A stretch of 53,448 bases of DNA, taken from a virus. Its lineage: Duplodnaviria > Caudoviricetes. Positions 2,765 through 21,997 of this stretch are shown piece after piece; position 1 is the first letter of the stretch, and the number at the start of each line of letters is the position of its first letter. Both the position numbers and the translations under genes were made by a program. The notes under the pieces were generated by a model that was given only the letters and a program-made list of their open reading frames with translations, made no database searches and was not told the origin of the DNA. The stretch is from positions 1 through 53,448 of the IMG/VR virus record IMGVR_UViG_3300048591_001682; one strand, 5' to 3'.

Positions 2765-4770
2765 GCCGCCTCCGTCGTGCTCACCGCGGCGTCGAAGTTC
2801 ACCAGTTCGACCCGGCACACCCCACTCTCCTCGTCGACACTGACCTTGGCGACCAGCGCCCGCAGCAGCCGACCCCGATTCACGGGCGTCATGCCGCCCC
2901 ACACCTTTCCGAAGTTGCGCAGCGCCCCCACGAACCAGTCGCGATGGTGCTCGGCGTCGGCGAGGCTCTCCACGTCGCGTTCGGCAGCACGTTGCCTCCG
3001 CTCGGCATCAGCAAGCTTGGCGGCCTCGATCCGCAGCTTGTCTTCGACGACCTGCCTGGCGCGGCCCTCGAACGCGCTGAGGTCCTCCATGAGCTTGTTG
3101 GTGGTAACCACCGCTTCCGCGATCTGCACGGCCAGCGCAGCGCGCACGTCGGCGAGACGCTTGCGGTCCTTGGCCAAGCGCGCGGTGAGCTTGTCCGCAA
3201 CGCGCTGCGCGAGCGTGCCGTCCGCGGTGGCCTCGGTGATGCGCTGAAACACGAAGTCCTCGATGGCCTTCGCGGGCAAAGGCCTGCCAGAGCACTGGCG
3301 CTTGCCGAACTTGTCCCGCGTCGAGCACCGGTAGAAACGGTAAGACTTGCCGCTCCTCTTGGTCGTCGACGCGGGCGTCATCGCCTCGCCGCACGAGCCG
3401 CAGCCCAACAAGCCCCGCAGCACGTACTCGGGATTCTGGCCGGTGACCCGCAGCTCGCGACCTCCCTCGCCGACCAACTCTTGCGCCTGCCGGTAAGTGA
3501 CGCCGTCGACGAGCGGCGGTTGCTCGCCGCGGAACAGCTCGTCGCCGTACATCATCTGGCCTGCGTAGAGGGGGCTGCGCAGCACGCGCGCGATGCCGTC
3601 CTTGGTCCACAGCGCCCCTCGCTTGTGCGTGCGCTTGGTCGTGCGAGGCAAGAGGCCGCGCTGGTTCAGCTCGCGCGCGACGACGGCCATCTGACGGTGG
3701 GCGAGCAGCAACGCGAAGGCCTCGCGCACGACGTGGGCCTCGGCCTCGTTCACGACGAGCTTCTTGTCCTTGGCCGAATAGCCGAAGGGCACGGGACCTC
3801 CCGTCCACTTCCCCTTGCGGCGCGCATTGGCGATCTTGTCGCGCGTGCGCTCGCTGACCATCTCGCGCTCAAACTCGGCGAACGACATCAACATGGTCAT
3901 CGTCAGCCGGCCCATCGCGTCGGCCGTCGAGAAGTTCTGCGTGATGGAGACGAACGACGCGCCCACTGCGTTGAGCCGCTCGATCACCTTCATGAAGTCG
4001 AGCAGCGAGCGCGAGAGGCGGTCGACCTTGTAGACGACGATGACGTCCACCTTGCCGGCCTCGACATCCGCCATCAGGCGCTTGAACGCGGGGCGGTCGA
4101 TGTTGGCGCCCGTGAAGCCGCCGTCATCGTAGCGGTCATCTACGAGCGTCCAGCCCGGGGTGCGCTCGATGTACGCGAGGCACGACTCGTACTGGGAGTC
4201 GAGCGAGTCTACAAGACCAACCACCAGCTCTTCACCCGCGATGGTGAGGAGGGACTTCAAGCGCTGCATCGCTCGCGACCGCTGCCGCTTGAGGCGTTGG
4301 TAGAGACGCTCGCGGGCCACGTCGTCGTCAGGCTCGAGACGCTCGACGTATGCGCGCAAAAGTTCTCGGCGCAGCACCGTCGCCTCGACCACATCGAGTC
4401 CGCTCGTGGAGAGACCTTCCTGGATGGCGCGGTAGAGGTGCGGTGCGATTGGGACGACGCCTTGGACGAGCAGCGCCTGACTGATCGCTCGCACCTTCGC
4501 GATGTTGCCGGCAGGGTCGAACGCGAATGGATGGCAGACGTAGACGCGCCGTCGCCGAGCTACCTCGCGCCGACGACGACGCACCAGCTCCGCGGCGATG
4601 TAGTGCAGACCGTCGAGCACCTCGGCATACGCCTCGCTTGGGTAGTCGCGACCGTCATCGATGCGCCACGGGCCATACTCCCGTCTCCCTTTTTCGAGAC
4701 GACCGAGCAGCGCATCACAGATCTGGCGCTCGTCTTCCGCTAGTCCGTTGATGCGACCACCAGCGCGCAT
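2761..4770 (-). pseudogene. Large serine recombinase lacking its catalytic N-terminus, fused in frame to unrelated fragments
   Basis: YDDGGFTG, DRPAF, VYKVDRLSRS, FAEFERE, recombinase and Zn-ribbon (CGSCG, YRC) domains present; no YxRxS motif before DSLDSQ. Confidence 0.75.
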
Positions 4771-5043: not shown

Positions 5044-5661
5044 TCAGCAGATGAGCGCCTGGACGGCGCGGAGCAGCTCGTCGTCGGTGGGGTGCGTGTA
5101 GATGCTGGTCGTCACGACAGACTTGTGGCGCGCAAACTTCTGGGTGAGCCGCAGGTCCTTCGACGCGCGGTACACGGCGCTGCACCCCGTGTGACGGGTC
5201 GAGTGGAAGTTCAAGTGGCGCTCGAACCCGGCTCGCTCCTGCCAGACCCCGAAGGCGTGCCGCAGCTGGCGCGCCGACAGCCTGCGCCCGAGCCGGCTCA
5301 CGAAGACCGGCGTCTCGGGCGTGATGGTCTCGCCGGCGCGCTTGCGCCTTGCGAGCAGCCGCTCGAGCTTGGCGCGCACAGCGTCGGGCAGCAGCACTTC
5401 CTGGAGCGCCGGATCCTTCGCGGAGCGCTTGAACACTCGGAGCACGACGCGGCGCTTGGCGCGGCCCGCGTTGTCGAACACGTCGCCCACGTCGAGCGCG
5501 AGGAGCTCGTGCTCGCGCAGCCCGGTTCCCATTGCGAGGCTAAAGATGCAGTGGTCTCGGAAGCCAGCGACATGCTGCCCCGTGACCTTCAACAGCTGCC
5601 GCTGCTCCTGCTCAGTCAGTGTCTTTACGGGACGCACGATGGTGTCGGCGTAGGCGGTCAT
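5044..5661 (-). CDS. Tyrosine recombinase (catalytic domain only)
   Basis: GTGLREHEL (R), FHSTRHT (HxxR), [12 protein letters not shown] (H/Y); ~205 aa. Confidence 0.9.
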
Positions 5662-5738
5662 GGCGGCTCCCCTCCACACCCATACACGCTTCCGCTTGCG
5701 AAGAAGGCAAGGTCATTCGCGACGTCCCCGAGGGCCGC

Positions 5739-7172
5739 GTGACGCTCGGGATCGTCAAGCGCACCGAGGCGGAGTTCCAGCAGTGGCTGATGACGGAGCC
5801 AGGCTTCGTCACGGCGCTGATGGCGTACGACGACGAGCCCGTCGTCCTCGAGGCGTACCAGCGTGAGTTCCTCACCAACCGCTCGCGGTTCCGGTGGGTC
5901 AACAAGAGTCGTCAGGTCGGCTTCTCGTTCCTCTTCGCGCTCGAGGCGCTCGCCCGCTGCCACCTGCGCTCGAAGCACACGGCTGTCTTCGTCAGCTACA
6001 ACATGGATGACGCGAAGGAGAAGGTGCTCACCGCACGCCAGCTCCACGAGGAGCTTCCGCTCGTGTACCAGAAGCGGCTCGTCGTCGACTCGAAGACGGA
6101 GCTCGCGTTCGAGTCGAACGGCGCGACGAAGCGGCTCTCGCGCATCCTCTCGCACCCGTCGAAGGCACCGCGCGGCAAGAAGGGCGACGTCTACCTCGAC
6201 GAGCTCGCACACTACGTGAACGACCGCGAGGTGTACCGAGGCTCGACGGCGCTCATCCTCCGCAGCAACGGGCAACTCACCGGCTGCAGCACGCCGCTCG
6301 GGCGGCGCGGCATCTTCTGGGAGATCGCCAACGAAGAGCTGCGCAAGTATCCGCACCACACGCGGCAGCACGTGCCGTGGTGGCTGTGCCGCTTCTTCAC
6401 CGCCGACGTGAAGGCCGCCTCCGAGGTCGCCCTCGACATGCCGACGGAGGAGCGTGTCGAACGCTTCGGTCGACCGACGCTCATCGAGCAGTTCGACTCG
6501 CTGCCCATCGAGGACTTCCAGCAGGAGTTCGAAGGCAAGTTCGTCGACGAGACGTACAGCTTCTTTCCCTACGAACTGATCCTCCCATGCACCAACGACG
6601 ACCTGGTGCTCTACGACGAGCCCACCAGCGTGCGCACGCCCGAGGGCCGCATCGTCGCAGGTTTCGACGTCGGCCGAACGCGCGACCGCTCGGAGCTGGC
6701 GGTGTTCGAGGAGATCGAGGGTCGCTTCACGGCGCGCATGCTGCGTAGCTTCGAGGGGACACCGTTCGCCGAGCAGGAGGCCGAGCTGCGGAGGCTGCTG
6801 GGCACGCTGCCGGTCGCGCGGCTCTCGATCGACCGGAGCGGCATCGGCATGAACCTCGCCGAGAACCTGTCGCGCGACTTCCCGCAGGTCATCGGCGAGA
6901 ACTTCACCAACGAGTCGAAGGAGCGCTGGGCGACAGACTTCAAGATCGTTCTCCAGCGTCGCGATGTGACGCTGCCACGTGACCGCGAGCTGGTTGGACA
7001 GATCCACGCCATCAAGCGGCGCGTGCTCCCCTCAGGCAAGGTCAGCTTCGACGCCGAGCGCAACTCGCGCGGGCATGCGGACAAGTTCTGGGCGGTGGCG
7101 CTGGCGTGTCAGAAGGAGCGCACGGTGAGCGGCCCGCGCACCGGCGAGATCGGCGTGCGTGTGCTGGGGTGA
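5739..7172 (+). CDS. terL: Terminase large subunit
   Basis: Walker A KSRQVGFS, Walker B VYLDE, nuclease GFDVGR and HADKFWA; GTG start at 5739 inferred. Confidence 0.92.
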
Positions 7173-7696: not shown

Positions 7697-8333
7697 CGTC
7701 TGTCCTTTCACCGCCGCTCGCGTGAGCACGTTGGTGACGGCAGCACTGTGACGCTTCCCGGTGCGGCGAACGCAAGCGTAAGGTTGAGCGAACCTTGGCA
7801 ATCTTCAGCAACCCTGTGCCGGCCGTGCTCCGGGTCTGCAGAGGCTCGCCTACTCCGGTCGGGTGGTGCTGGCGCGCTTCGCGCGTGCGCCGCCAACGGT
7901 GATGGGCGCAATGCCTATCCGCAGCGAGAACCCGATGTCGAACGACCCGCCCACCCCCTCCCAACGCCCACTGGGTCCGGAGCTCTTGGTGCACCGCGAA
8001 TGGCTGGCAGAGTTTCGTTAGAAACGACTCAGCCCCGGTCTTCACCCCAAGTCGATCAAGTTTATTTGTTTGATTCTCTTGACCCCGAACCTGGAGCAAT
8101 GTACAAAGTTCAAAGCTGGAGGACTTGGCGTCCTTCGCGATCGAGAACGAGTCATGTTGCGGCACAGCGAACATAAGAAAGCGCAGAGGCAAGCGTTGCT
8201 CGGGTGGTGCCCGAGCAATGACGCAAGCCCCGTGCTCTCCGTGCGTGCCCTGCCAGCGGCCACCACTGGCAATTTCGCGCGCCAGGAGGGCCTTCCCTAG
8301 GGCGGTTCGATCGTTCATCGAGTGACGAGTTCG

Positions 8334-8369
8334 ACCGCCCCTGGCCACGCCACGGGCGGTTTTTCTTTT
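8334..8369 (+). terminator. Rho-independent terminator
   Basis: ACCGCCC...GGGCGGT stem followed by TTTTCTTTT. Confidence 0.6.
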
Positions 8370-8498
8370 GTCTTTTCAGGCATTTTGGGGCTCCCAAGGG
8401 AGGCCCGAGTTCAAACGACAGCGAGCAGGATGTGCGGTTACGCAAGGGAGGAGTGATGGGACACCGAATGAAACCGGAGCCGACCATTCCTCACCAGC

Positions 8499-8574
8499 GG
8501 GGTCGTAGCTCAACAGGCAGAGCATCCGGCTTTTAACCGGGCGGTTGTGGGTTCGAGTCCCATAGGCCCCACCA
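8499..8574 (+). tRNA. tRNA-Lys(TTT)
   Basis: Cloverleaf, loop CT TTT AA, GGTTCGAGTCC, CCA. Confidence 0.9.
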
Positions 8575-8575
8575 C

Positions 8576-8648
8576 GGATCCGTAGCTCAACAGGCAGAGC
8601 ACCCGGCTCTTAACCGAGGTGTTGGGGGTTCAATTCCCTCCGGGTCCA
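8576..8648 (+). tRNA. tRNA-Lys(CTT)
   Basis: Cloverleaf, loop CT CTT AA. Confidence 0.88.
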
Positions 8649-8734
8649 CCGCGCTTTCATTTCATGAAAGCGAACAATATTGGTGCGTATTCAAACGTAC
8701 TAACGAGCGAAATCAAAACGCATTGTTTTGATAT

Positions 8735-8808
8735 TCGGGAGTCGTCCAGCGGCAGGACGCCTGGCTCTGACCCAGGTAACGGGGGTTCGAATCCCTCCTC
8801 CCGAACCA
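8735..8808 (+). tRNA. tRNA-Gln(CTG)
   Basis: Cloverleaf, loop CT CTG AC, CCA. Confidence 0.92.
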
Positions 8809-8817
8809 ACGTCGCTT

Positions 8818-8844
8818 GCAGCGATCTTTGACAATCGAGAGAGA
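8818..8844 (+). promoter_or_regulatory. boxA-like sequence; left arm of long-range inverted repeat
   Basis: GATCTTTGACAA resembles rrn boxA; 25/27 complementary to 12818-12844. Confidence 0.55.
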
Positions 8845-8897
8845 CTTTTCGTGCGGCGCGCTGGGTGTAGCGAGCCACGGCGCGCCGCACATCCTTT

Positions 8898-8972
8898 TGC
8901 ACGGTAGCTCAATGGTAGAGCGGCGACCTGTTAAGTCGACAAATGGAGGTTCGAGTCCTCCCTGTGCAGCCA
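8898..8972 (+). tRNA. tRNA-Asn(GTT)
   Basis: Cloverleaf, loop CT GTT AA, GCCA. Confidence 0.9.
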
Positions 8973-8973
8973 A

Positions 8974-9032
8974 GGCGAATGCTGAAGGGACTACATCGAC
9001 CGCTAATCGACGTCTCTTCGTTCCTCGTCGCC
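8974..9032 (+). ncRNA. Short Y-RNA-like gene (Rsr-binding stem only)
   Basis: GGCGAATG motif; shares GGGACTACATC and GTCTC..CTCGTCGCC with the two YrlA-like RNAs. Confidence 0.65.
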
Positions 9033-9038
9033 GTTGAT

Positions 9039-9107
9039 AGGTCGGGCGCTGGGACGCAGGCGGGCCTCCAAAACCTGCCGCGCGAGGTTCGATTCCTCGA
9101 CGACCTG
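9039..9107 (+). tRNA. tRNA-Trp(CCA), degenerate D arm
   Basis: AGGTCG/CGACCT acceptor, loop CT CCA AA, CGAGG TTCGATT CCTCG T arm. Confidence 0.65.
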
Positions 9108-9195
9108 CTGAAACATATGTTCTGTGATCGCGATGCGCATGCACGTCTGAAGACGCACGCGCGCATCGCGAACGCAGACAACATGAGAACTCGCT

Positions 9196-9362
9196 GGGGC
9201 CGCGGTCCAGTTCGGAGTGGACGCCTGCTTGTCACGTAGGAGAGCGCGGGTTGACTAGGGTCCTACGGACCCGTCCTTCACCTGGAATCGTGCAGCTACG
9301 TGGACTGCGTCCACTTCGCCTCGCACGATTCCACGCGAAACCAAGTCCCGTCGGCCCCGCCA
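9196..9362 (+). tRNA. tRNA-Asp(GTC) interrupted in T loop
   Basis: Normal cloverleaf with TTCAAGT loop and GCCA restored on removing 9253-9341. Confidence 0.85.
9253..9341 (+). mobile_element. ~90 bp tRNA-interrupting element, copy A1
   Basis: GACTAGGGTCC..GGACCC...GCGAAAC at GGTT^CAA, no target duplication. Confidence 0.8.
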
Positions 9363-9364
9363 AT

Positions 9365-9439
9365 GTCACGATAGCTCAGTGGGTAGAGCGCTCGCTTGAA
9401 GCCCGAGAGGCACTGGTTCAACTCCGGTTCGTGGCACCA
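9365..9439 (+). tRNA. tRNA-Phe(GAA)
   Basis: Cloverleaf, loop TT GAA GC, CCA. Confidence 0.85.
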
Positions 9440-9479
9440 CGCTCCTTCGCAGCGTCATCGACGATGCAGGAGGGGCACT

Positions 9480-9551
9480 CAGGGTCATCGTCCAAGGAGG
9501 GCGCCCCGGTCTGGAGCCGGGTGGCGGTGGGTTCGATTCCCACGGCCCTGA
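9480..9551 (+). tRNA. tRNA-Pro(TGG), atypical
   Basis: CAGGGTC/GGCCCTG acceptor, loop TC TGG AG, canonical T arm. Confidence 0.65.
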
Positions 9552-9563
9552 CGAACGATTTTT

Positions 9564-9695
9564 TGGGCGAATGCAGTAGGGACTACATCGGCATTTAACC
9601 GCGTGGTCGCGGGTTCAACTCCCGCCGTTCATCCGCAAGGGTGCGCGTAGCTCAGTGGTAGAGCGCGTACGTGTCTCTGCGTTCCTCGTCGCCCA
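9564..9695 (+). ncRNA. YrlA-like Y RNA with circularly permuted tRNA domain
   Basis: GGCGAATG 5' motif; T arm GCGGG TTCAACT CCCGC precedes a GCAA-closed acceptor stem and D arm GCTCAGTGGTAGAGC; terminal stem then T run. Confidence 0.85.
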
Positions 9696-9703
9696 TTTTT
9701 TCT

Positions 9704-9778
9704 GGTGGCCGATCCCGAAGTGGTCGAGGGCCCCGGCTGTGACCCGGGGGTAAGGCGGTTCAAGTCCGCTCGGTCACC
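9704..9778 (+). tRNA. tRNA-His(GTG)
   Basis: G-1:C73, loop CT GTG AC. Confidence 0.85.
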
Positions 9779-9785
9779 CTGCTTT

Positions 9786-9860
9786 CCGCCTGTCGTCCAA
9801 TGGTCAGGACTCCCGTCTGATATGCGGGCAACGATGGTTCGATTCCATCCAGGCGGACCA
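9786..9860 (+). tRNA. tRNA-Ile(GAT)
   Basis: Cloverleaf, loop CT GAT AT, CCA. Confidence 0.85.
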
Positions 9861-9995
9861 CTCGCTCGGCGCGGAGATAGCGCGTGTTCGCGATATCTCT
9901 GCGGCCGTTTCGCCGGGCGGCGTGCGCTCGCGTGCACGCTGGAGCTCCGAGCTCGACGCCCGCGCACTCGCGTGCGTGCGGTTGGCAACCACCAT

Positions 9996-10162
9996 GGTCC
10001 GGTAGCTCAGTCAGGTAGAGCGTCTGTATGACATGCAGAAGGCCGCGGGTTGACTAGGGTCCTCCGGACCCGTCCTTCGCCCGGAATCGTGCAGCTGCGT
10101 GGACTCACGTCCACTTCGCTCCGCACGCTTCCACGCGAAACCGACGCCCGCCTGGACCACCA
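9996..10162 (+). tRNA. tRNA-Val(GAC) interrupted in T loop
   Basis: Cloverleaf restored on removing 10052-10141. Confidence 0.85.
10052..10141 (+). mobile_element. ~90 bp tRNA-interrupting element, copy A2
   Basis: Near-identical to A1, at GGTT^CGA. Confidence 0.8.
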
Positions 10163-10166
10163 TCAC

Positions 10167-10239
10167 GGGGCTGTAGCTCAGCAGGGAGAGCGCTGTCGTG
10201 GCACGGCAGAGGCGGCGGGTTCGAGACCCGCCAGCTCCA
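10167..10239 (+). tRNA. tRNA-Ala(GGC)
   Basis: G3:U70, loop GT GGC AC. Confidence 0.88.
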
Positions 10240-10247
10240 CAAACAAC

Positions 10248-10320
10248 GGGGAGGCATGTACCAAGGGGGCGAGCTGGCCCTGCAAGTCGGCTGCGGTGGG
10301 TTCGATTCCCATCCTCTCCA
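10248..10320 (+). tRNA. tRNA-Ala(TGC), atypical
   Basis: G3:U70, loop CC TGC AA, weak D arm. Confidence 0.7.
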
Positions 10321-10328
10321 CCCGTTTC

Positions 10329-10400
10329 GCGCCCGAAGTGTTTTCGGCGGCACCCCTGGCTTCCAACCAGGAGGGGCGGGTTCGAGTCCCGCCGGGCGCT
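10329..10400 (+). tRNA. tRNA-Gly(TCC)
   Basis: GCG start, loop CT TCC AA, U73. Confidence 0.85.
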
Positions 10401-10409
10401 CAAGTCATT

Positions 10410-10484
10410 ACCTCTGTGGTCCAACGGAAGGGCGTCGGTCTTCTAAACCGAAAGGTGGCGGTTCGAGTCCGTCCAGGGGTGCCA
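10410..10484 (+). tRNA. tRNA-Arg(TCT)
   Basis: Cloverleaf, loop CT TCT AA, GCCA. Confidence 0.88.
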
Positions 10485-10493
10485 TCGCTTTTT

Positions 10494-10660
10494 ACCCACG
10501 TAGCTCAACGGAAAGAGTCCCCGGCTTCGGTTTCGGGTGGAATCGTGCGCAGCGGAACGGACGACAAGTCCGTGGAGCCGCAGGATTCCGGCCGAAGGAC
10601 GGGTCCGCAGGACCCTAGTCAACCGGTGGGGTGGGGGTTCAAATCCCTCCGTGGGTGCCA
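10494..10660 (+). tRNA. tRNA-Arg(TCG) interrupted in anticodon loop
   Basis: Loop CT TCG AA restored on removing 10530-10620. Confidence 0.82.
10530..10620 (-). mobile_element. ~90 bp tRNA-interrupting element, copy A3 (inverted)
   Basis: Reverse complement reads GACTAGGGTCCTGCGGACCC...CCCGAAAC, at minus-strand GGTT^CGA. Confidence 0.8.
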
Positions 10661-10662
10661 AT

Positions 10663-10740
10663 GTCCTCGTAGCTCAGTGGATAGAGCGCCGGCGTGCGAA
10701 GCCGGGACTGCCGGAGGTTCGACTCCTCCCGAGGACGCCA
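10663..10740 (+). tRNA. tRNA-Arg(GCG)
   Basis: Cloverleaf, loop GT GCG AA, GCCA. Confidence 0.85.
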
Positions 10741-10744
10741 TTTT

Positions 10745-10815
10745 CGCGGGGAGGGCCGGCGCCCAGCGAGGCCTCATAAGCCTCTGCCCGTCAGGTTCAA
10801 CTCCTGGCCCCGCAA
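10745..10815 (+). tRNA. tRNA-Met(CAT), initiator-like, degenerate D arm
   Basis: CGCGGGG with C1:A72 mismatch, loop CT CAT AA. Confidence 0.7.
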
Positions 10816-10822
10816 CAGTATC

Positions 10823-10894
10823 CCCGCTGACGATCGGATCGACGCGCCTCTCATACGGGCGACGGCGGCGGTTCGACTCCGCCCGGCGGGACCA
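10823..10894 (+). tRNA. tRNA(CAT) (Met or Ile2), degenerate D arm
   Basis: CCCGCTG/CGGCGGG acceptor, loop CT CAT AC, CCA. Confidence 0.6.
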
Positions 10895-10895
10895 A

Positions 10896-10971
10896 CGGGA
10901 TGTGGCGCAGTTGGAAGCGCGCCGGTCTGGGGGACCGGAGGTCGCCGGTTCGAGTCCGGCTATCCCGACCA
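10896..10971 (+). tRNA. tRNA-Pro(GGG)
   Basis: Cloverleaf, loop CT GGG GG, CCA. Confidence 0.92.
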
Positions 10972-10977
10972 AACTTC

Positions 10978-11052
10978 GCGGGGTTCGCTCTCTGGGAGAG
11001 CGCCTGCCCTACAAGCAGGACGAGCTGGGTTCGATTCCCAGACCCCGTACCA
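10978..11052 (+). tRNA. tRNA-Val(TAC)
   Basis: Cloverleaf, loop CC TAC AA, CCA. Confidence 0.82.
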
Positions 11053-11055
11053 AAA

Positions 11056-11142
11056 GCCCGGGTGACGGAACACTGGCAGACGTGCAGCGTTGAGAGCGCT
11101 GCGGGGCTCGTCCCCGTGCAGGTTCGAATCCTGTCCTGGGCA
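11056..11142 (+). tRNA. tRNA-Leu(GAG)
   Basis: Long variable arm, loop TT GAG AG. Confidence 0.88.
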
Positions 11143-11148
11143 CTGATC

Positions 11149-11234
11149 GCTCGCGTGGCGGAACGGGCAGACGCGGTCGGCTTAAGTCCGACTGCCCCTC
11201 GGCGGGCATGGGGGTCCGACTCCCTCCGCGAGCA
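11149..11234 (+). tRNA. tRNA-Leu(TAA)
   Basis: Long variable arm, loop CT TAA GT; T loop TCCGACT variant. Confidence 0.82.
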
Positions 11235-11240
11235 CACTTT

Positions 11241-11329
11241 GCCGGGATGGCGGAATCAGGCAGACGCGCTGGGCTTAGAACCCAGTGACCCTTGAGGTCG
11301 TGCAGGTTCGACTCCTGTTCCCGGTACCA
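11241..11329 (+). tRNA. tRNA-Leu(TAG)
   Basis: Long variable arm, loop CT TAG AA, CCA. Confidence 0.9.
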
Positions 11330-11334
11330 ACTTT

Positions 11335-11495
11335 GCGGACTTGGCGGAACTGGCAGACGCGCCTGACTCAAGCTCAGGTGAGCTCTCAGCTCATGGGGGT
11401 TCAAGGTGTCCCGCGGCGAACGCCGCAGGCACCTCGTTGTTGGTCAGCACGCCCCTCCGGAGCGTCCTGACCAACTGCGACTCCCCCCGTCCGCA
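11335..11495 (+). tRNA. tRNA-Leu(CAA) interrupted in T loop
   Basis: TTCGACT loop restored on removing 76 bp at 11403-11478. Confidence 0.8.
11403..11478. mobile_element. Two-hairpin insertion B1 in tRNA-Leu T loop
   Basis: Hairpins AGGTGTC..GGCACCT and GTTGGTCAG..CTGACCAAC; boundary ambiguous by 1 nt. Confidence 0.6.
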
Positions 11496-11543
11496 CAATG
11501 GCTCTCATCGCTGAGGAGGTGAAGCGCCAAGGAGACTGTGACC

Positions 11544-12074
11544 ATGAGAACGCTCGTACTGGACCACGGCTACCAGCCGCACCGCATCGTCAGCTGGCAA
11601 CGCGCCGTCATCATGCTGTTCGATGGTAAGGTCGAGATCGTCGAAGAGTACGACGAGCCGATCCGCTCGGTGAGCATCACCATCAAGATGCCTGCCGTCG
11701 TACGCATGCTGCGCGCGGTGCGCGGTCGTAGACGCGCAATCAAGTTCTCGCGCATCAACGTCGCCACGCGAGACGACTTCCGCTGCCAGTACTGCGGCGG
11801 CAAGTTTCCCCTTCGTCGACTCACTCATGACCACGTCGTGCCCCGTTCCCAAGGCGGACGCACCGCGTGGGACAACATCGTGATGGCTTGCTACCCGTGC
11901 AACGAGGCCAAGAGAAATCGGACGCCTGAGCAAGCTGGAATGAAGCTGCGCAAGCAGCCCGTGAAGCCCTCGTGGCTTCCGGTGATCGCATTCCATGTCG
12001 ACGCGACGCACAGCATTCCCGATGCCTGGGCCAACTGGCTCTACTGGCACGGGGCGCTTGAGGAAGGCTCGTGA
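11544..12074 (+). CDS. HNH endonuclease
   Basis: RDDFRCQYCG...THDHVVPRSQGG...WDNIVMACYPCNEAKRN; AGGAG RBS. Confidence 0.92.
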   Translation: MRTLVLDHGYQPHRIVSWQRAVIMLFDGKVEIVEEYDEPIRSVSITIKMPAVVRMLRAVRGRRRAIKFSRINVATRDDFRCQYCGGKFPLRRLTHDHVVPRSQGGRTAWDNIVMACYPCNEAKRNRTPEQAGMKLRKQPVKPSWLPVIAFHVDATHSIPDAWANWLYWHGALEEGS

Positions 12075-12163
12075 GAGCAAGCCTCGCACCTTCCGACCGG
12101 ACGGCGGACCCGCGGTAGTCTTCGATGGCTCCGACGCCGCCGCCGTCCTGGTCGGAAACCTTT

Positions 12164-12240
12164 CGGAGCATAGCGCAGTCTGGAAGCGCGCCTGGTTCGG
12201 GACCAGGAGGTCGTGGGTTCAAATCCCACTGCTCCGACCA
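12164..12240 (+). tRNA. tRNA-Pro(CGG)
   Basis: Cloverleaf, loop TT CGG GA, CCA. Confidence 0.93.
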
Positions 12241-12273
12241 GATGGAGGTCGTTCTGACCTCCTTACTTTTTCC

Positions 12274-12396
12274 GCGGCGAATGCATGCGGGACTACATCA
12301 CCCTGGTGAACTCGGTTCGATTCCGAGCCGATCCTGATGGAGCGGTCGTCTAACGGTAGGACCCCAGGCAAACGTCTCGCGACGACTCGTCGCCGC
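12274..12396 (+). ncRNA. Second YrlA-like Y RNA
   Basis: GGCGAATG motif; order CCTGG - T arm CTCGG TTCGATT CCGAG - loop-closed acceptor - D arm GTCTAACGGTAGGAC - CCAGG. Confidence 0.85.
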
Positions 12397-12400
12397 CTTT

Positions 12401-12553
12401 GGAAGGTCACGTGGCAGTGGTGCCACACCGGCTTCGAAACCCGGGGGCGTCATCGACGCAGAGGTTCATGGTTGATCGTTCGGCTCTGCCAAACGGTCAA
12501 CCATGGGATGCCTCGCGATGCTCGGACATCAGCGACTCCTCGGCCTTCCGCCA
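12401..12553 (+). tRNA. tRNA-Ser(CGA) interrupted in T loop
   Basis: GGAAGGT/GCCTTCC acceptor, G73, long variable arm; T loop restored on removing 12468-12533. Confidence 0.75.
12468..12533. mobile_element. Hairpin insertion B2 in tRNA-Ser T loop
   Basis: ATGGTTGATCGTT..AACGGTCAACCAT hairpin plus weaker second stem; boundary ambiguous by 1 nt. Confidence 0.6.
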
Positions 12554-12558
12554 TTCCA

Positions 12559-12645
12559 GGAGGACACAGTAACGGTGGTCGTCACGACCGGCTGCTACCC
12601 GGTTGGCGCGTTCGCGTCGAGGTTCGACTCCTCTGTCCTCCGCCA
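12559..12645 (+). tRNA. tRNA-Ser(GCT)
   Basis: Long variable arm, loop CT GCT AC, GCCA. Confidence 0.82.
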
Positions 12646-12651
12646 ATGTTC

Positions 12652-12726
12652 GCGACCAAGGTGTTGACGGCTGCACGCTGCCCCGCCACGGCGGAAGCGC
12701 GGGTTCGATTCCCGCTGGTCGCTCCA
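12652..12726 (+). tRNA. tRNA-Gly(GCC)
   Basis: GCG start, loop CC GCC AC, TCCA. Confidence 0.82.
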
Positions 12727-12731
12727 TTCTG

Positions 12732-12807
12732 TCCCTGTCTTCTAGCTGGACAAGGATCCCGGGCCCTCAACCCGGAGACGGGGGTTCAACTCCCCCCAGT
12801 GACGCCA
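12732..12807 (+). tRNA. tRNA-Glu(CTC)
   Basis: Loop CC CTC AA, GCCA. Confidence 0.8.
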
Positions 12808-12817
12808 CAGCACGAGT

Positions 12818-12844
12818 TCTCTCTCGATCGTCAAAGACCGCTGC
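12818..12844 (+). repeat. Right arm of long-range inverted repeat
   Basis: TCTCTCTCGATCGTCAAAGACCGCTGC, complementary to 8818-8844 at 25/27. Confidence 0.7.
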
Positions 12845-12868
12845 GCGCGAATACCTACGGAGATCACC

Positions 12869-14437
12869 ATGGTACTCAAGGCATTGTTCAAGAGCGCAGC
12901 TCGGTCCGCACCCAAGGCGACCAGCGTCAACCACGAGAACGCCCCGGCGTATGCGCTCGACTCGCGTACTGCGCTCGCGCAGCTCGCGGCGACCGGCTGC
13001 TTCGGAAGCACGTTCTACGTGACCGGCCAAGAGCAGCTCGACAAGGTGCTTGAGCACGCGGGTCGTTGTGACCCGGTGTTCGTGGCCAAGGTCGCTGTGT
13101 ACGCGCGTGAGCGTGGCTTCATGAAGGACATGCCGGCGGTGCTGCTCGCGCATCTCGCGACGCGGGGTGCGGAGGGCATCGCGGCCATGAAGGCGGCGTT
13201 CCCGCGCGTGGTCAACAACGGACGAATGCTTCGTGCGTACGTCCAGGTCATTCGCTCCGGGCAGCTGGGTCGAAAGTCCTTGGGTACGGCGCCGAAGAAG
13301 GTCGTGCAGCGTTGGCTTGGCGCGCGCTCGGCGATGAGCCTGTTCTCAGACTCGGTCGGAAACGATCCGTCACTCGCTGATGTGATCAAGATGGTCCACC
13401 CCACGCCGACCTCGGACGAGCAGCGGGCGATGTACGGCTACCTGCTTGGTAAGCCCTACGACGTCGAGAAGCTTCCGTACACCGTGCGGTCGTACGAGGC
13501 CTGGAAGCGCGGCGAGGGTGATGGTTCGGTGCCGAAGGTGCCGAGTCTGATGCTCGCCGGACTGCCACTGGGCAAGAAGGAGTGGACGGAGATCGCAAAG
13601 CACGCACGTTGGCACGAGACGCGAATGAACCTCAACACGTACCAACGCCACGGCGTCTTCGACGACGAGGCGTTGGTGAAGCTCATCGCGTCGCGTCTCG
13701 CAGACAAGGATGAGGTGCGGGCGGCCAAGGTCTTCCCATACCAACTCTTGGTGGCCTGGAAGACGGCGTCGGAAGTCCCGGCCCTGATCCAGAACGCCCT
13801 GCAAGAGGCCATGGAGCACTCACTCGAGAACATCCCGGAGATCGACGGTCAGGTGGTCATCTGCCCAGACGTCTCCGGCTCCATGCAGAGCGCGGTGACG
13901 GGCTACCGCAAGGGCGCCACTAGCACGGTGCGATGCGTGGACGTCGCGGCGATGATCTCGGCGGCGCTCTTGCGGAAGAGCCCGTTGGCGCGCGTCATCC
14001 CCTTCGAGCAGGACGTTCGCTCTATCCGACTCAACCCTCAGGACTCAGTCATGACCCTCTCACAGCAGCTCGCATCGATCGGCGGTGGCGGAACCAGCTG
14101 CTCGGCGCCGCTGTCGCTCCTGAACAAGGAGAAGGCGAAGGTCGACGCCGTGATCTACGTCTCTGACAACGAGTCGTGGGTCGATGCCCAAGACAAGAGC
14201 GGCTACCAGCGCGGCACCGCGATAATGGAGGAGTGGACCAAGCTCCGTCAGCGCAACCCGCAGGCGAAGCTCGTATGCGTTGACCTTACTCCCAACACCC
14301 ACAAGCAGGCGATCGATCGGCCGGACATTCTCAACGTCGGGGGCTTCTCCGACGCGGTGTTCGACGTGACCGCCCAGTTCATCAAGGCCGAGGGCCAGGC
14401 ACCTTGGGCTGAGGTGATCGACCGAACTGAACTGTAA
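12869..14437 (+). CDS. rsr: Ro60/Rsr TROVE-domain RNA-binding protein with vWA domain
   Basis: LAQLAATGCFGSTFY, ARERGFMKDMP, RMNLNT, MIDAS-like CPDVSGSM, GGGTSCS, SDNESW, VGGFSD. Confidence 0.93.
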   Translation: MVLKALFKSAARSAPKATSVNHENAPAYALDSRTALAQLAATGCFGSTFYVTGQEQLDKVLEHAGRCDPVFVAKVAVYARERGFMKDMPAVLLAHLATRGAEGIAAMKAAFPRVVNNGRMLRAYVQVIRSGQLGRKSLGTAPKKVVQRWLGARSAMSLFSDSVGNDPSLADVIKMVHPTPTSDEQRAMYGYLLGKPYDVEKLPYTVRSYEAWKRGEGDGSVPKVPSLMLAGLPLGKKEWTEIAKHARWHETRMNLNTYQRHGVFDDEALVKLIASRLADKDEVRAAKVFPYQLLVAWKTASEVPALIQNALQEAMEHSLENIPEIDGQVVICPDVSGSMQSAVTGYRKGATSTVRCVDVAAMISAALLRKSPLARVIPFEQDVRSIRLNPQDSVMTLSQQLASIGGGGTSCSAPLSLLNKEKAKVDAVIYVSDNESWVDAQDKSGYQRGTAIMEEWTKLRQRNPQAKLVCVDLTPNTHKQAIDRPDILNVGGFSDAVFDVTAQFIKAEGQAPWAEVIDRTEL

Positions 14438-14499
14438 ACGGGGGCGGACGTGCGCCGCCCAAATGCCGGCGGGGCCGTCAAACCCTTGTCGCGTTCTAC

Positions 14500-14574
14500 G
14501 CTCTCGATGCGTTGGTGGTGACGCACCTGTCTCGTAATCAGGAGAACGGGGTTCGATTCCCCGCGAGAGCTCCA
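14500..14574 (+). tRNA. tRNA-Thr(CGT)
   Basis: Cloverleaf, loop CT CGT AA, CCA. Confidence 0.85.
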
Positions 14575-14575
14575 T

Positions 14576-14654
14576 GCCGCCGAAGACTCTGATGGTTCGG
14601 GTCGCCAGGTTTTCACCCTGGAGGTCGCCGGTTCGATTCCGGTCGGCGGTGCCA
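14576..14654 (+). tRNA. tRNA-Glu(TTC)
   Basis: Loop TT TTC AC, GCCA. Confidence 0.82.
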
Positions 14655-14657
14655 CAA

Positions 14658-14732
14658 TCGGGGCTGGTCTAACGGCAGGATGCCGGACTTTGAATCCGTG
14701 CGGTGGGGGTTCGAATCCCCCGCCCCGAACCA
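14658..14732 (+). tRNA. tRNA-Gln(TTG)
   Basis: Cloverleaf, loop CT TTG AA, CCA. Confidence 0.88.
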
Positions 14733-14823
14733 TATGCGTCACGGGGGCGCCGGCGGCTGCGAACGGGGCGCGCGAGGAGCGCCGCGCGCACGGTCGCGCT
14801 CGCTGCTTGGCAACGACGTGAGG

Positions 14824-15267
14824 CTACTCGTTGATGGCTTCGATGCCCTGTGCAGCAAGCCGCGCAAGCCCGTCCTTCATCGCTTGGAGCTGCTCGGGCG
14901 CGTGGCCCTTCCAGTCGATGATCTCGCCGATCACCCGGATCGGCGCCCGCGTGCGGAAGGACCTCGTCGGGTTCCCGGGGAACTTCTTGTCGGTGAGGTT
15001 CGGGTCGTCTTCGATCGGCCCCGAGGGTTCGACGATGTAGATGCGGCCTGGCCCGTCACCGATCGCCAGCTCGGCGCCCCATGTGGCGGCGTCCAGGGTG
15101 CCCGTCAGGTACACGAAGGCGGCGTTCTTCCTCTCGCCATAGTTGGACGAGCGACCGGCCTCGATCAGGTCGCCTGGCTTCAGGTCGGCCTTCGTGCCGT
15201 GGAGGTAGCCCGGCGTCCCGGAGCTGTCCGTCCACACCTTGAAGGGCTCGGGTGTCGGCATCGTCAT
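14824..15267 (-). CDS. arr: NAD+--rifampin ADP-ribosyltransferase
   Basis: HGTKADL, SNY, AATWGAELA, EDDPNLTDKKFPGNPTRS are Arr signature segments. Confidence 0.93.
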   Translation of the reverse strand: MTMPTPEPFKVWTDSSGTPGYLHGTKADLKPGDLIEAGRSSNYGERKNAAFVYLTGTLDAATWGAELAIGDGPGRIYIVEPSGPIEDDPNLTDKKFPGNPTRSFRTRAPIRVIGEIIDWKGHAPEQLQAMKDGLARLAAQGIEAINE

Positions 15268-15299
15268 CGGCAGTCACTGTACGCCGAGCCTCACTGACT

Positions 15300-15329
15300 G
15301 TCCCCGCCATTCGCGCCCCGAGGCTTTGC
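15300..15329 (+). promoter_or_regulatory. Conserved bipartite motif, copy 1
   Basis: GTCCC-N18-GCTTTGC upstream of portal module. Confidence 0.7.
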
Positions 15330-15434
15330 CCTTGCCGGAGGCGAGGCGCGCGGTCCAGCTGCTCGGTGCCCAGGTGGACTGCCTCCTCGCAGGCTGGCCA
15401 AGCGCCTCGCCTCCGCTGATTCGCGGAGTCCACC

Positions 15435-15640
15435 ATGCGGCGTACGCTCACGACCTTCGTCATCCCGGCAGGCAAGCCTGCGGGCGCTCCGCCCGAGCCT
15501 GGACCGCAAGTCGAGCTCGAAGCGCCCACCGAGGACGGGCTCCTGGCCGCCGCGCATAGCGCAATCGCCGAGCGCGGGCTGCGGCTGCGCTCCATGTCGT
15601 TCACTCCGACGGGGCTCGTCGCCTACGCGGAGGCGGCCGG

Positions 15641-15644
<4 letters not shown>
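15435..15644 (+). CDS. Small hypothetical phage protein
   Basis: GGAG RBS; stop overlaps portal start. Confidence 0.6.
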
Positions 15645-17441
<1,797 letters not shown>

Positions 17442-17452
<11 letters not shown>

Positions 17453-19641: not shown

Positions 19642-19830
19642 ATGCCCGAGACTGCGAAGCCGCGCGCGCCAGAGAGCCGCGCCCCGGATCAGGGGAACGG
19701 CACGGCATCGTCCGCGGCAGCGCGGCAGCAGAAGCGCTACGAGCCGGTCGTTTGGCCGCGCGACTTGAACGCGCCCTCCACCGACCAGCCGGCGTGGGGC
19801 TCCGACCCGGAGGCGCTGCGCGATGGGTGA
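19642..19830 (+). CDS. Small hypothetical phage protein
   Basis: GGAGG RBS; overlaps next start; its WPRDLN resembles WPLDLN at the scaffold C-terminus. Confidence 0.5.
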   Translation: MPETAKPRAPESRAPDQGNGTASSAAARQQKRYEPVVWPRDLNAPSTDQPAWGSDPEALRDG

Positions 19831-21997
19831 CCGCCGCGATGCCGCCATCGCCCACGCGCGCCGCATCCTCGCAGCGAACCAGCGCGCGCGCCAGGAGGTC
19901 GAGAAGACCATCTGGGGATCGCCCGCAGGCAAGAAGCGCCTGGCAGACCGCCTGGTGGCGATGCTCCCGGCGCACAAGACCTACGTCGAGCCCTTCGCCG
20001 GCAGCGCTGCGGTGCTGTTCGCCAAGGAGCCCTCGGAGGTCGAGGTCATCAACGATGCGGACCTCGAGATCGCGGACGCCTACCGGCTCATCAAGAAGCT
20101 CTCGTCCGAGGGGCTCGCGAAGCTGAAGAAGCTGCCGTGGGTCGGCGACGAGGAGACCTTCAAGCGGCTCCTCGACGTTGAGCCCGAGGACGACGTCGAG
20201 CGGCTGCACCGCTTTCTGTACCTGACGCACTTCTCCCACGGGAAGATGCGCGGCAAGAGCTTCAGCCCGACCGTGGTTGGCGTCGAGGCGACGACCATCA
20301 AGCGCATCGAGAAGTTCGCGCCGCGCCTGAAGAAGGTGAAGGTCTACGGCGGCGACTACGAGAAGGTCGTTCGCAAGTACGACAGTAAGGACACCGTCTT
20401 CTTCCTCGATCCGCCGTACCCCGGCTACAACGTGGACGTTGGCGAGAGCGAGTTCGACGAGGAGCGCTTCTTCAAGCTGCTCAAGTCGCTCAAGGGCCGT
20501 TTCCTCATCACCTACGGCATCCGGGGCAAGTTCCCGGAGCTGGTGAAGGACAGCGATTTCTGGACGAAGCGCATTCGCACCCGCCGCTCCATCGCGCACA
20601 TGCGGGGCGTCGGCGGCAGCTCCGTGCTGACGCAGCTCCCGGTCGCGAACTACGAGCCGACCACCAAGGCGCTCGACGACGAATTCGCCCTCGACGACTG
20701 GGACGACGCACTCGACGACGGCGCTGACGACGTCGAGAAGGCGCAGCCCTTCGGTACGTTCGGCGGTTCGTTCCACTACGCGAAGCGCATCGTGCCGCTC
20801 ATCCCAGCGCACAAAACCTACGTCGAGCCCTTCGCGGGCGCGGCGGCGGTGCTGCACGCCAAAGACCCGAGCGACAAGGAGGTCATCGCGGACCTCGACG
20901 ACGACGTGGTGTTCCTCCACCGGAGCATCAAGGCAATGACGCCCGAGCGCGTCGAGGAGCTGCGCCGCCGCTTCGAGTGGACCGTCACGCAGGAGAGCTT
21001 CGAGAAGGCCCGCGACATGACGCCGAAGGACGATGTCGCGCGCTTCTACAAGCTGGTGTTCGTGCGCACCCACGCGCGTGACTGCCGCCCCGACGGTACG
21101 CACCCGGCGCAGCAGCACCTCGGCTCGACGACGAACCCCGAAAAGTACCTCAGAGCCGCCGAGCGCCTGAAGGGCGTGAGCATCCTGCGGCAGGACTACC
21201 GCAAGACGATCAGCGCCTACGACAGCAAGGACACGTTCTTCTTCATCGACCCGCCGTACCCCGGCGAGTGGTTCGACAAGGACAAGGTCATCGATCTCAA
21301 CGAGTTCATCGACACGCTGGCGAAGGTCGAGGGCAAGTTCATCGCGGTCCTCAACCCCACGCCCGAGAACGTGGCGGCGTTCAAGAAGGTCGGGCACGTC
21401 TTCCGGCTCAAGGTGCGCGAGGCCTCGGGGCGCGGCGGCGCCAAGCAGGCCATGCGCCTCTTCGTCGCCAACTTTCCGGTGCGCAAGGCACAGGAGTTCG
21501 AGCTCGTCGCCAAGTGCGAGCACCTGCCGCTTGATCCCGGCGTCGATGCCCTGGTGTTCGACAAACCCTCGCGCCTCGTGAAGGGCATCGACCCGAACGA
21601 CGAGCGCTTCGTGCTGGGCATCGTGCTCGAGCCGGAGGTGGTCGACGCGCAGGGCGACATCTACTCGCCTGAGGAGATCCGCGCGGCCGCCCACCGTTTC
21701 ATGGAGGACTTCGGCGGTCTCGGGCTGATGCACCGGCTTCGCGTGAACGGGCAGGTGAAGGTGCTCGAGAGCTACCTCGCGCCCACCGACTTCACCATCG
21801 GCGAGCTCGCGGTCCGCAAGGGCACGTGGCTCCTCGCGGTGCGCGTGCTCTCCGACGAGCTGTGGGAGCGCGTGAAGTCTGGCGACCTCACGGGTTTCTC
21901 CATCGGCGGCTCAGCGCGCCGAGTGCCCGAGCCCGCTCCCGTTCAGACGTCGGAACAGCCGACCAACAACCAGCCACCCTCGGAGGCCTCCGCATGA
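19823..21997 (+). CDS. Tandem Dam-type adenine methyltransferase domains fused to XkdF-like prohead protease
   Basis: Two YVEPFAG and two DPPY motifs; C-terminal [19 protein letters not shown]...LMH...GTWLL...GFSIGG. Confidence 0.88.

Follow-up and report, generated by a model that had tools for sequence, protein, structure and literature searches.

What are the short, closely similar sequences that split tRNA genes in a phage tRNA array, and do they move as DNA or leave as RNA? The locus lies in the IMG/VR record IMGVR_UViG_3300048591_001682, a 'provirus' record of 53,448 bases with an estimated completeness of 51%; this whole stretch is referred to as the window. An earlier note, made from the letters of the window alone, had described three copies of a structured element there and read them as a non-autonomous, sequence-specific DNA element rather than an intron. 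We suggest that the copies belong to a family of small (~65-100 nucleotides, nt) non-autonomous mobile DNA elements, which would insert precisely just 3' of G-T-T, with no duplication and no terminal inverted repeats. That they are DNA elements we regard as highly probable. Taken together with mobilisation in trans by an HUH-like enzyme, as discussed below, the whole explanation has a probability of roughly 0.55.

The three copies and the tRNA genes that they split are listed here with their strand; scores are those of a covariance model built from copies A-C.

9253..9341, + strand: copy A, 89 nt, tRNA-sense, splitting tRNA-Asp(GTC) between T55 and C56 of its T loop; 106.8 bits
9197..9362, + strand: interrupted tRNA-Asp(GTC), exons about 9197-9252 and 9342-9362, CCA encoded; the restored tRNA spans -56..+21 of the junction
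10052..10141, + strand: copy B, 90 nt, tRNA-sense, splitting tRNA-Val(GAC) between T55 and C56 of its T loop; 110.5 bits
9997..10162, + strand: interrupted tRNA-Val(GAC), exons about 9997-10051 and 10142-10162; the restored tRNA spans -55..+21
10530..10620, - strand: copy C, 91 nt, inverted relative to tRNA-Arg(TCG) and placed in its anticodon loop, at GGTT|CGA of the minus strand; 103.5 bits
10494..10659, + strand: interrupted tRNA-Arg(TCG), exons about 10494-10529 and 10621-10659

The existence of three copies is confirmed by BLAST within the record (E 1.6e-42, 7.2e-30 and 1.4e-18), by their alignment over 89-91 nt, with a mean column identity of 91% within the element, and by the covariance scores of 103-110 bits. 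In both searches copies A-C are the sole strong matches within the record. All three have the ends GACTAGGGTCC...CGAAAC and are flanked by ...GGTT| on the left and |C(A/G)A on the right with zero target duplication, as the earlier note had described. The compensatory change that it had pointed out, GTGGAC/GTCCAC in A and B versus ACGGAC/GTCCGT in C, is likewise present in the alignment. After in-silico removal ARAGORN restores all three tRNAs, tRNA-Asp(GTC), tRNA-Val(GAC) and, on the strand opposite to the inverted element, tRNA-Arg(TCG); the tRNA model of Rfam also runs across copy C (10494-10657) with the element as an insert. On the intact window the same program calls none of five interrupted tRNA genes (the other two are described below), so tRNA counts for such arrays are underestimates. 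The 6,400-base array region holds 31 GGTTCRA sites, both strands counted, and the odds of three random insertions all falling on such sites are therefore ~(31/12800)^3, or ~1e-8.

Close phage relatives lack two of the three copies at the exact predicted borders, which argues that the element moves as DNA. The best share of the window's words in any public sequencing run is 0.41, no run reaching half, with shares of 0.07-0.17 in the RNA runs X15-X20, and four runs from different studies (X1, X5, X7 and X11; two with the library label 'DNA?' and two unlabelled) contain relatives that are 90-99% alike. Their contigs were aligned to the window, and only the parts that they cover are used as evidence. 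Contigs of X5 and X7 are empty at copy A, running from 9252 straight to 9342 and skipping exactly 9253-9341, while X1 is filled there. At copy B, the major form of X1 (depth 75.6), X5 and a 35.7-kb contig of X11 join 10051 to 10142 and skip exactly 10052-10141; the site is empty and diverged in X7, and filled in minor contigs of X1 (depth 12.9) and X5. Copy C is filled in all four runs. This is a DNA insertion polymorphism with exactly the predicted borders, and it provides the empty sites in DNA that the earlier note had proposed to look for. More distant, element-free viral arrays with the same gene order also contain uninterrupted versions of the tRNAs, Leu(CAA) in 8, Asp in 8, Val(GAC) in 6 and Ser(CGA) in 2 of the 10 loci listed.

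The insertion site can be compared across the family. Removal of the element leaves a tRNA across the joint in 19 of 37 covariance-model hits tried with ARAGORN, the other 18 being truncated, non-tRNA or with borders misplaced by the model. Over 33 curated sites the left flank is nearly invariant, with G at -3 in 31, T at -2 in 33 and T at -1 in 31, while the right flank has C at +1 in 26, G at +2 in 25 and A at +3 in 23, where the right flank of L119 5680-5785 is to be ignored because its right border is wrong. The flanks are not random: the conserved target is the G-T-T before the cut, and the remainder of GGTTCRA is largely T-loop background. The target is thus shorter than the GGTT^CRA proposed in the earlier note: on the right side C occurs at only 26/33 sites, and 7/33 sites lie outside tRNA genes.

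Among the 33 sites, 19 are in T loops in tRNA sense, six lie antisense at or within tRNAs (anticodon loop in two, D-arm region in one, 3' end in three), seven are non-tRNA and one is unclear; two of the seven non-tRNA sites, at L155 and L142, are in the loops of palindromes. The end beside G-T-T is always the RACTA-hairpin end, and antisense and non-tRNA insertions have the same left flank as sense copies. Hence orientation follows the strand that bears G-T-T|C, as insertion directed by DNA sequence predicts and as the earlier note had argued from its one inverted copy. We propose that the insertion would be oriented, the end formed by RACTA and the hairpin GGGTCC-TNC-GGACCC being placed beside G-T-T. 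Sense copies would then lie in T loops, and antisense copies where the other strand reads GTT|C, that is in the anticodon loops of NCG anticodons and at acceptor 3' ends. As GGTTCRA is found in the T loop of every tRNA gene, long arrays are dense with targets and the element would accumulate there. Two arrangements in locus L119 illustrate the variety of insertions: at 3128-3367 a tRNA-Gln(CTG) lies between two antisense copies, one of them in its 3' end, where removal gives ...CCG|AACCA, and at 3933-4110 head-to-head copies interrupt both the anticodon loop and the T loop of a single tRNA-Ser(CGA).

Structurally, each window copy consists of a short 5' hairpin, RAC..GGGTCC-TNC-GGACCC..GTY, and a long 3' hairpin in three tiers, whose base pairs the 3' end of the element with the bases just after the first hairpin. 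The folding energies of the copies are below those of 200/200 shuffles, both as RNA (z -6.8, -5.8 and -4.9) and as DNA (z -5.0, -4.6 and -3.8). Covariation supports both hairpins. When 24 long-type copies are aligned with MAFFT, RNAalifold gives a fold of 24 pairs, and at 10 of these both sides have changed; 96.7% of 576 cells are paired, versus 24-43% when the partner is slid, and 46 cells show double changes. For four of five pairing measures the observed value is reached by 0/500 shuffles, while the fifth, the number of further pair types, shows no excess (462/500 shuffles reach the observed value). There are only 4 G.U cells versus 19 plain mismatches, and this rarity of G.U, together with the common double changes, points modestly to selection for pairing in DNA rather than RNA. 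Sequence conservation resides in the 5' hairpin; the 3' hairpin is kept mainly in shape, and it is replaced altogether in subfamilies of 65-72 nt.

The wider family was searched for with the end motif (17 fixed bases, one genome per species, 596 Gb), which returned 22 loci; by our own estimate ~70 chance matches of such a motif are expected in 596 Gb. Eighteen of the 22, all from four Myxococcota metagenome-assembled genomes (MAGs, here G001-G004), hold 33 covariance-model matches. Matches of the motif outside Myxococcota (L063, L069, L071, L078 and nine metagenome loci) have no model match and different downstream sequence, and were set aside as chance or unrelated. Over whole MAGs the covariance model finds 6 matches in G001, 4 in G002, 8 in G003 and 32 in G004, and metagenome loci add 63, so that the genome-wide search proposed in the earlier note extends the element to four Myxococcota genomes and to metagenomes. 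The motif was found in 3/401 sampled Myxococcota genomes; the family is therefore rare. In phage relatives, none of 51 terminase-relative loci has a covariance-model match, and there was no match to the exact end motif in viral contigs or by distant BLAST against a phage collection.

The listed matches of G001-G003 are on short contigs, most of which carry tRNA arrays, and these arrays are syntenic with the window array, again including an HNH gene. In G004 (loci L058-L076) the ~90-nt module instead sits within a unit of ~230 bp that resembles a miniature inverted-repeat transposable element (MITE); this unit has inverted ends flanked by TA and often directly follows a stop codon. In one metagenome (loci among L125-L186) it is likewise embedded in a longer repeat, some of the embedded copies in G004 or metagenomes contain a further nested insert, and in other metagenome contigs the module stands alone, at non-tRNA sites. 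Family elements range from ~65 to 100 nt. The array of L119 carries six near-identical 71-nt copies in six different tRNAs, which speaks for recent spread within the array. A copy at L129 (5578-5857) begins as the family does, with the GTT left flank, the first hairpin and the 5' half of the long stem, but its sequence departs from the family at the apex and is cut off where the contig ends; this may be a longer relative with cargo.

Hairpin content alone would also fit non-mobile structured spacers or regulatory hairpins that merely look alike. Such a reading is hardly credible, given the exact presence and absence at predicted borders in relatives, the many copies across unrelated sites and genomes, and the copies inside otherwise intact tRNA genes.

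Two further inserts, absent from the earlier note, occupy the same T-loop position in the window. They and the other parts of the array bear on the question of whether the inserts could be introns.

11402..11477, + strand: fourth insert, 76 nt, two hairpins, at TT|CGA (T55|C56) of tRNA-Leu(CAA), directly upstream of the HNH gene; z -5.8
12467..12532, + strand: fifth insert, 66 nt, two hairpins, at TT|CGA (T55|C56) of tRNA-Ser(CGA); z -4.85
8499..14732, + strand: tRNA array (6.3 kb) between terminase and portal, 26 intact tRNAs by ARAGORN plus the interrupted genes
11544-12074: HNH_5 endonuclease gene in the array (Pfam)
12869-14437: Ro60/Rsr homologue in the array (family scan)
9564-9698, 12274-12399 and 8972-9037: YrlA-like RNAs, Rfam scores 61.9, 55.3 and 26.5 bits, all under the Rfam gathering score of 69

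Removal of 11402-11477 gives back tRNA-Leu with ARAGORN. Both inserts consist of two adjacent hairpins and have no sequence in common with copies A-C. No relatives of 11402-11477 were found in the loaded loci or in G001-G004, and none of 12467-12532 in G001-G004.

Could the inserts then be intron-like, with sense copies cut from the pre-tRNA by an endonuclease or by the RNA itself and the halves rejoined by RtcB, DNA mobility coming on top and antisense copies being dead ends? Inserts of unrelated sequence with a similar two-hairpin build at the same position are what would be expected, the two hairpins bring the ends together so that the first and last paired bases of the element are adjacent, and interrupted genes still yield good cloverleaves. 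Moreover, the only genes found for Asp in the window, and for Tyr, Lys and Asp in L119, are interrupted ones. RtcB genes are on all four MAG contigs with element-bearing arrays (G001:C469, G002:C10, G003:C255 and G003:C328), and a Ro60 homologue and YrlA-like RNAs lie within the window array. Against this, the 53-kb record (51% complete) contains no RtcB, and, according to the study of long tRNA arrays ('L-arrays') by Santamaria-Gomez et al. (2021, PMC8421152), such arrays are in general linked to RtcB and HNH genes, so the linkage is not specific to the element.

The distribution of copies also disagrees with an intron, as 6/33 curated sites are antisense in tRNAs, 7/33 are outside tRNAs, and copies are embedded in MITE-like repeats throughout G004. 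G.U pairs are not favoured. A scan of window positions 8000-15500 against Rfam 15, with E up to 1, gives only tRNA, YrlA and chance-level matches, and on the elements only matches of the tRNA model that read into or across them, with no ribozyme or intron match. By inspection there are no group I or II features and no P1/P2 like those of the hepatitis delta virus (HDV) ribozyme, and the folds have no 3-4-3 bulge-helix-bulge (BHB) motif at the joints. Inspection together with the Rfam scan led to the rejection of HDV-like, hammerhead, BHB, group I and integron interpretations of the ends. Known tRNA introns, the archaeal BHB type and the bacterial group I introns of anticodon loops, share with the element a short insert whose removal restores the tRNA, and archaeal non-canonical introns can lie in the T arm. 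They differ from the element, which has no BHB or group I core by inspection, no Rfam match, antisense and non-tRNA copies, and a DNA polymorphism. To our knowledge, no splicing endonuclease is to be expected in a bacterial or phage host. On balance an intron-like nature is unlikely, and the reading of the element as non-autonomous, sequence-specific DNA rather than an intron is upheld by the exact empty sites, the intact syntenic tRNAs, the left flank shared by antisense and non-tRNA copies, and the lack of a transposase family in the scanned open reading frames (ORFs). A bolder version is distinctly improbable: the two-hairpin inserts would be a bacterial or phage counterpart of T-loop tRNA introns, in which sense copies and the unrelated inserts at TT|C alike are recognised by their fold and cut from the pre-tRNA, the halves being sealed by array-linked RtcB, with DNA mobility as the route of spread. 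If it were true, an array loaded with inserts would keep working, and the RNA-repair machinery could turn it on.

The HNH gene of the array invites another explanation, homing, in which the free-standing HNH endonuclease cuts uninterrupted T-arm DNA, repair copies the interrupted neighbour and the insert then protects the site. HNH_5 is the only protein common to the three arrays compared (window versus G001, 73% over 174 aa; window versus G002, 52% over 180 aa), and the neighbouring tRNA-Leu(CAA), directly upstream of it, carries an insert in each of the four element-bearing arrays, a different element every time. The regions with the split gene are:

L117 5860-6035: split tRNA-Leu(CAA)
L119 6100-6410: split tRNA-Leu(CAA)
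L121 470-640: split tRNA-Leu(CAA)
window 11336-11497: split tRNA-Leu(CAA)

However, HNH homologues at 35-78% identity occur in 62 viral loci, many of which have 25-37 tRNAs, and none of these loci gives a model match with E up to 0.1. A structure-blind scan of these loci for T-loop inserts, which doubles as a specificity control, returns 11 candidate rows in 9 loci, none like the elements. Since homologues occur in so many loci without the element, the array HNH gene is unlikely to be the mobiliser. Furthermore, the homology that flanks insertions in different tRNAs is only a few bases long, and the non-tRNA sites and the 32 copies of G004 are far from any such gene. HNH genes are also a general companion of long tRNA arrays (PMC8421152). 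A similar arrangement is 'collaborative homing', which reportedly involves an ORF-less intron in cyanophage psbA and a neighbouring free-standing HNH endonuclease. The likeness is the free-standing HNH gene adjoining the interrupted tRNA-Leu(CAA), while the difference is again that homologous HNH loci lack elements and that elements also lie far from HNH genes. We consider homing very unlikely.

If the element is mobile DNA, an enzyme encoded elsewhere would move it in trans. There is no recognisable transposase in the window: the record has no Y1 transposase, and the 30 window ORFs scanned contain no transposase-like Pfam family, with no search aimed at TnpB, IS110-DEDD or IS91-Y2. Together with the lack of element ends at Y1 genes, this makes the element non-autonomous. 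We suggest that the enzyme would recognise folded single-stranded DNA, as IS200/IS605-type HUH transposases do, because insertion occurs 3' of a short motif, the joints are seamless, the hairpins are subterminal and the 3' end is paired to a segment 5' of the second hairpin. This HUH-like mechanism, drawn by analogy, is tentative and somewhat short of an even chance when taken by itself. Unless the element leaves again, the simplest reading of the interrupted tRNA genes would be as inactivated passengers in an array that is redundant.

The element is of the small non-autonomous, seamless, target-specific kind, unusual in its target and habitat, and its anatomy is closest to the palindrome-associated transposable elements of IS200/IS605 (moved by the Y1 HUH protein TnpA). 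The two have in common a seamless joint without duplication and exact empty sites, an oriented insertion 3' of a short motif that abuts the left end, the absence of inverted terminal repeats, and subterminal hairpins with a 3' end that pairs with a segment 5' of its hairpin. The last feature recalls the pairing of guide and cleavage site in IS608. Both ends of the element have hairpins supported by covariation, but these differ in sequence and size, and the cut is only 5 nt from the first hairpin. The G-T-T target with its strong tRNA T-loop bias and the length of only 65-100 nt are also different. As the unlike hairpins and the 5-nt spacing fit poorly, the element is not filed as a member of IS200/IS605.

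REP/REPIN sequences and RAYT offer a second comparison. REPs have a GTAG head and are thought to be moved in trans by RAYT. The element resembles them as a multi-copy short hairpin repeat with a conserved head of 4-5 nt before the palindrome (CTAG-G in the element). However, its head is (R)ACTAG and not GTAG, there are no copies near the Y1 genes of G001-G004, and it sits inside tRNA genes at a defined nucleotide and at low copy number in most genomes, whereas REPs form intergenic arrays.

The element could also derive from another seamless site-specific system, of IS110/IS1111 type with a DEDD recombinase guided by a bridge or seek RNA, of IS91 or rolling-circle type, or a tyrosine or serine recombinase that acts on hairpin-like sites. 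In line with this, it has no duplication, no inverted terminal repeats and a specific target, and some insertions are in palindrome loops (L155, L142). In addition, the last bases of the ...CATGTT subfamily repeat the left-flank G-T-T, as a shared core would, so a shared TT as in an IS110/IS1111-type core is possible there. This does not extend to the window subfamily, which ends in ...GAAAC and has no dinucleotide common to both joints. IS91 targets GTTC/CTTG as a whole. Integron cassettes have cores RYYYAAC...GTTRRRY, and their G|TT crossover leaves GTT at both borders; in the window the right joint is ...GAAAC|C, and by inspection GTT is not present at both borders. Such an origin is quite unlikely. 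The HUH-type or IS110 mobility to which the earlier note had likened the element remains a resemblance only, as no cognate enzyme was found.

Several observations weigh against this preferred explanation, the mobile element moved in trans by an HUH-like enzyme. The two hairpins are dissimilar, and the first begins just 5 nt from the cut, both unlike IS200/IS605 ends. No cognate enzyme has been found for the element: the 20 array-contig ORFs scanned hold no transposase family (other ORFs there belong to the Band 7, TetR, transglutaminase, sacsin-like and phosphatase families), and the covariance model matches none of the eight Y1 transposase loci of G001-G004 (best E 0.25), the record and these MAGs all being incomplete. 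The transposase gene with the same ends that the earlier note had proposed to look for was not found in the window or at these loci, and neither was an autonomous relative with the same ends and a Y1 TnpA, TnpB not being searched for. The sole clear IS200-like copy has end hairpins unlike those of the element. Y1 transposases were accordingly rejected as the mobiliser, with none in the window, no element ends near the Y1 genes of G001-G004, and other hairpins.

The unrelated inserts at the same TT|CGA are odd for a transposase that needs conserved ends, and hint that the site or the fold itself matters; the tRNA-Leu(CAA) split by four different elements in 4/4 arrays points the same way against it. 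Finally, the evidence from runs consists of assembled contigs and not of raw reads. The filled and empty forms of copy B in X1 differ in their flanks (15 against 3 other letters), so they represent two loci or strains and are no proof of ongoing excision, a reading of this pair that was rejected for that reason.

The record is a tailed-phage fragment with a structural module, in which family scans of ORFs also find a MuF-like protein, capsid, tail and baseplate proteins and an amidase. The genes on either side of the array, both from a Pfam-type ORF scan, are:

5619-7172: large terminase
15641-17452: portal

None of the 12 terminase-relative loci scanned (51 such loci in all) contains any tRNA; the whole array was therefore acquired in this lineage, and, missing from these 12, it itself looks like a mobile cassette. 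The same gene order recurs in arrays of Myxococcota MAG contigs and, next to HNH homologues, in other viral contigs. The structure corresponds to the L-arrays with linked HNH and RtcB genes of PMC8421152, with more than 26 tRNA genes here, an embedded HNH gene and RtcB on the MAG contigs. It differs in its T-loop inserts; the available part of that paper mentions pseudogenes for L-arrays and no T-loop inserts.

The Ro60 homologue with its adjoining YrlA-like RNAs resembles a phage-borne Ro/Y-RNA module within a tRNA array; no Ro60 relatives were confirmed among viral contigs. Elsewhere in the record, the ORF at 19823-21997 fuses a D12-class N6-adenine DNA methyltransferase domain to an XkdF-type phage serine protease domain.

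While tRNA genes are classic landing sites for large integrating elements, the passenger described here is of 65-100 nt and splits the T loop at one phosphodiester bond, is found in either orientation, and occupies up to ~1/3 of the genes of an array. In agreement with the earlier note, it matches no described family: it is absent from Rfam 15, and a literature search, with supplementary files outside its reach, found nothing on T-loop-splitting elements of bacterial or phage tRNA arrays. If the element is a pure parasite, it shows a route by which accessory tRNA arrays decay in phages and Myxococcota, and it offers a very compact, highly site-specific and seamless insertion system. If the inserts are instead removed again, from DNA or from RNA, they would act as a switch on the supply of particular tRNAs in infection or stress.

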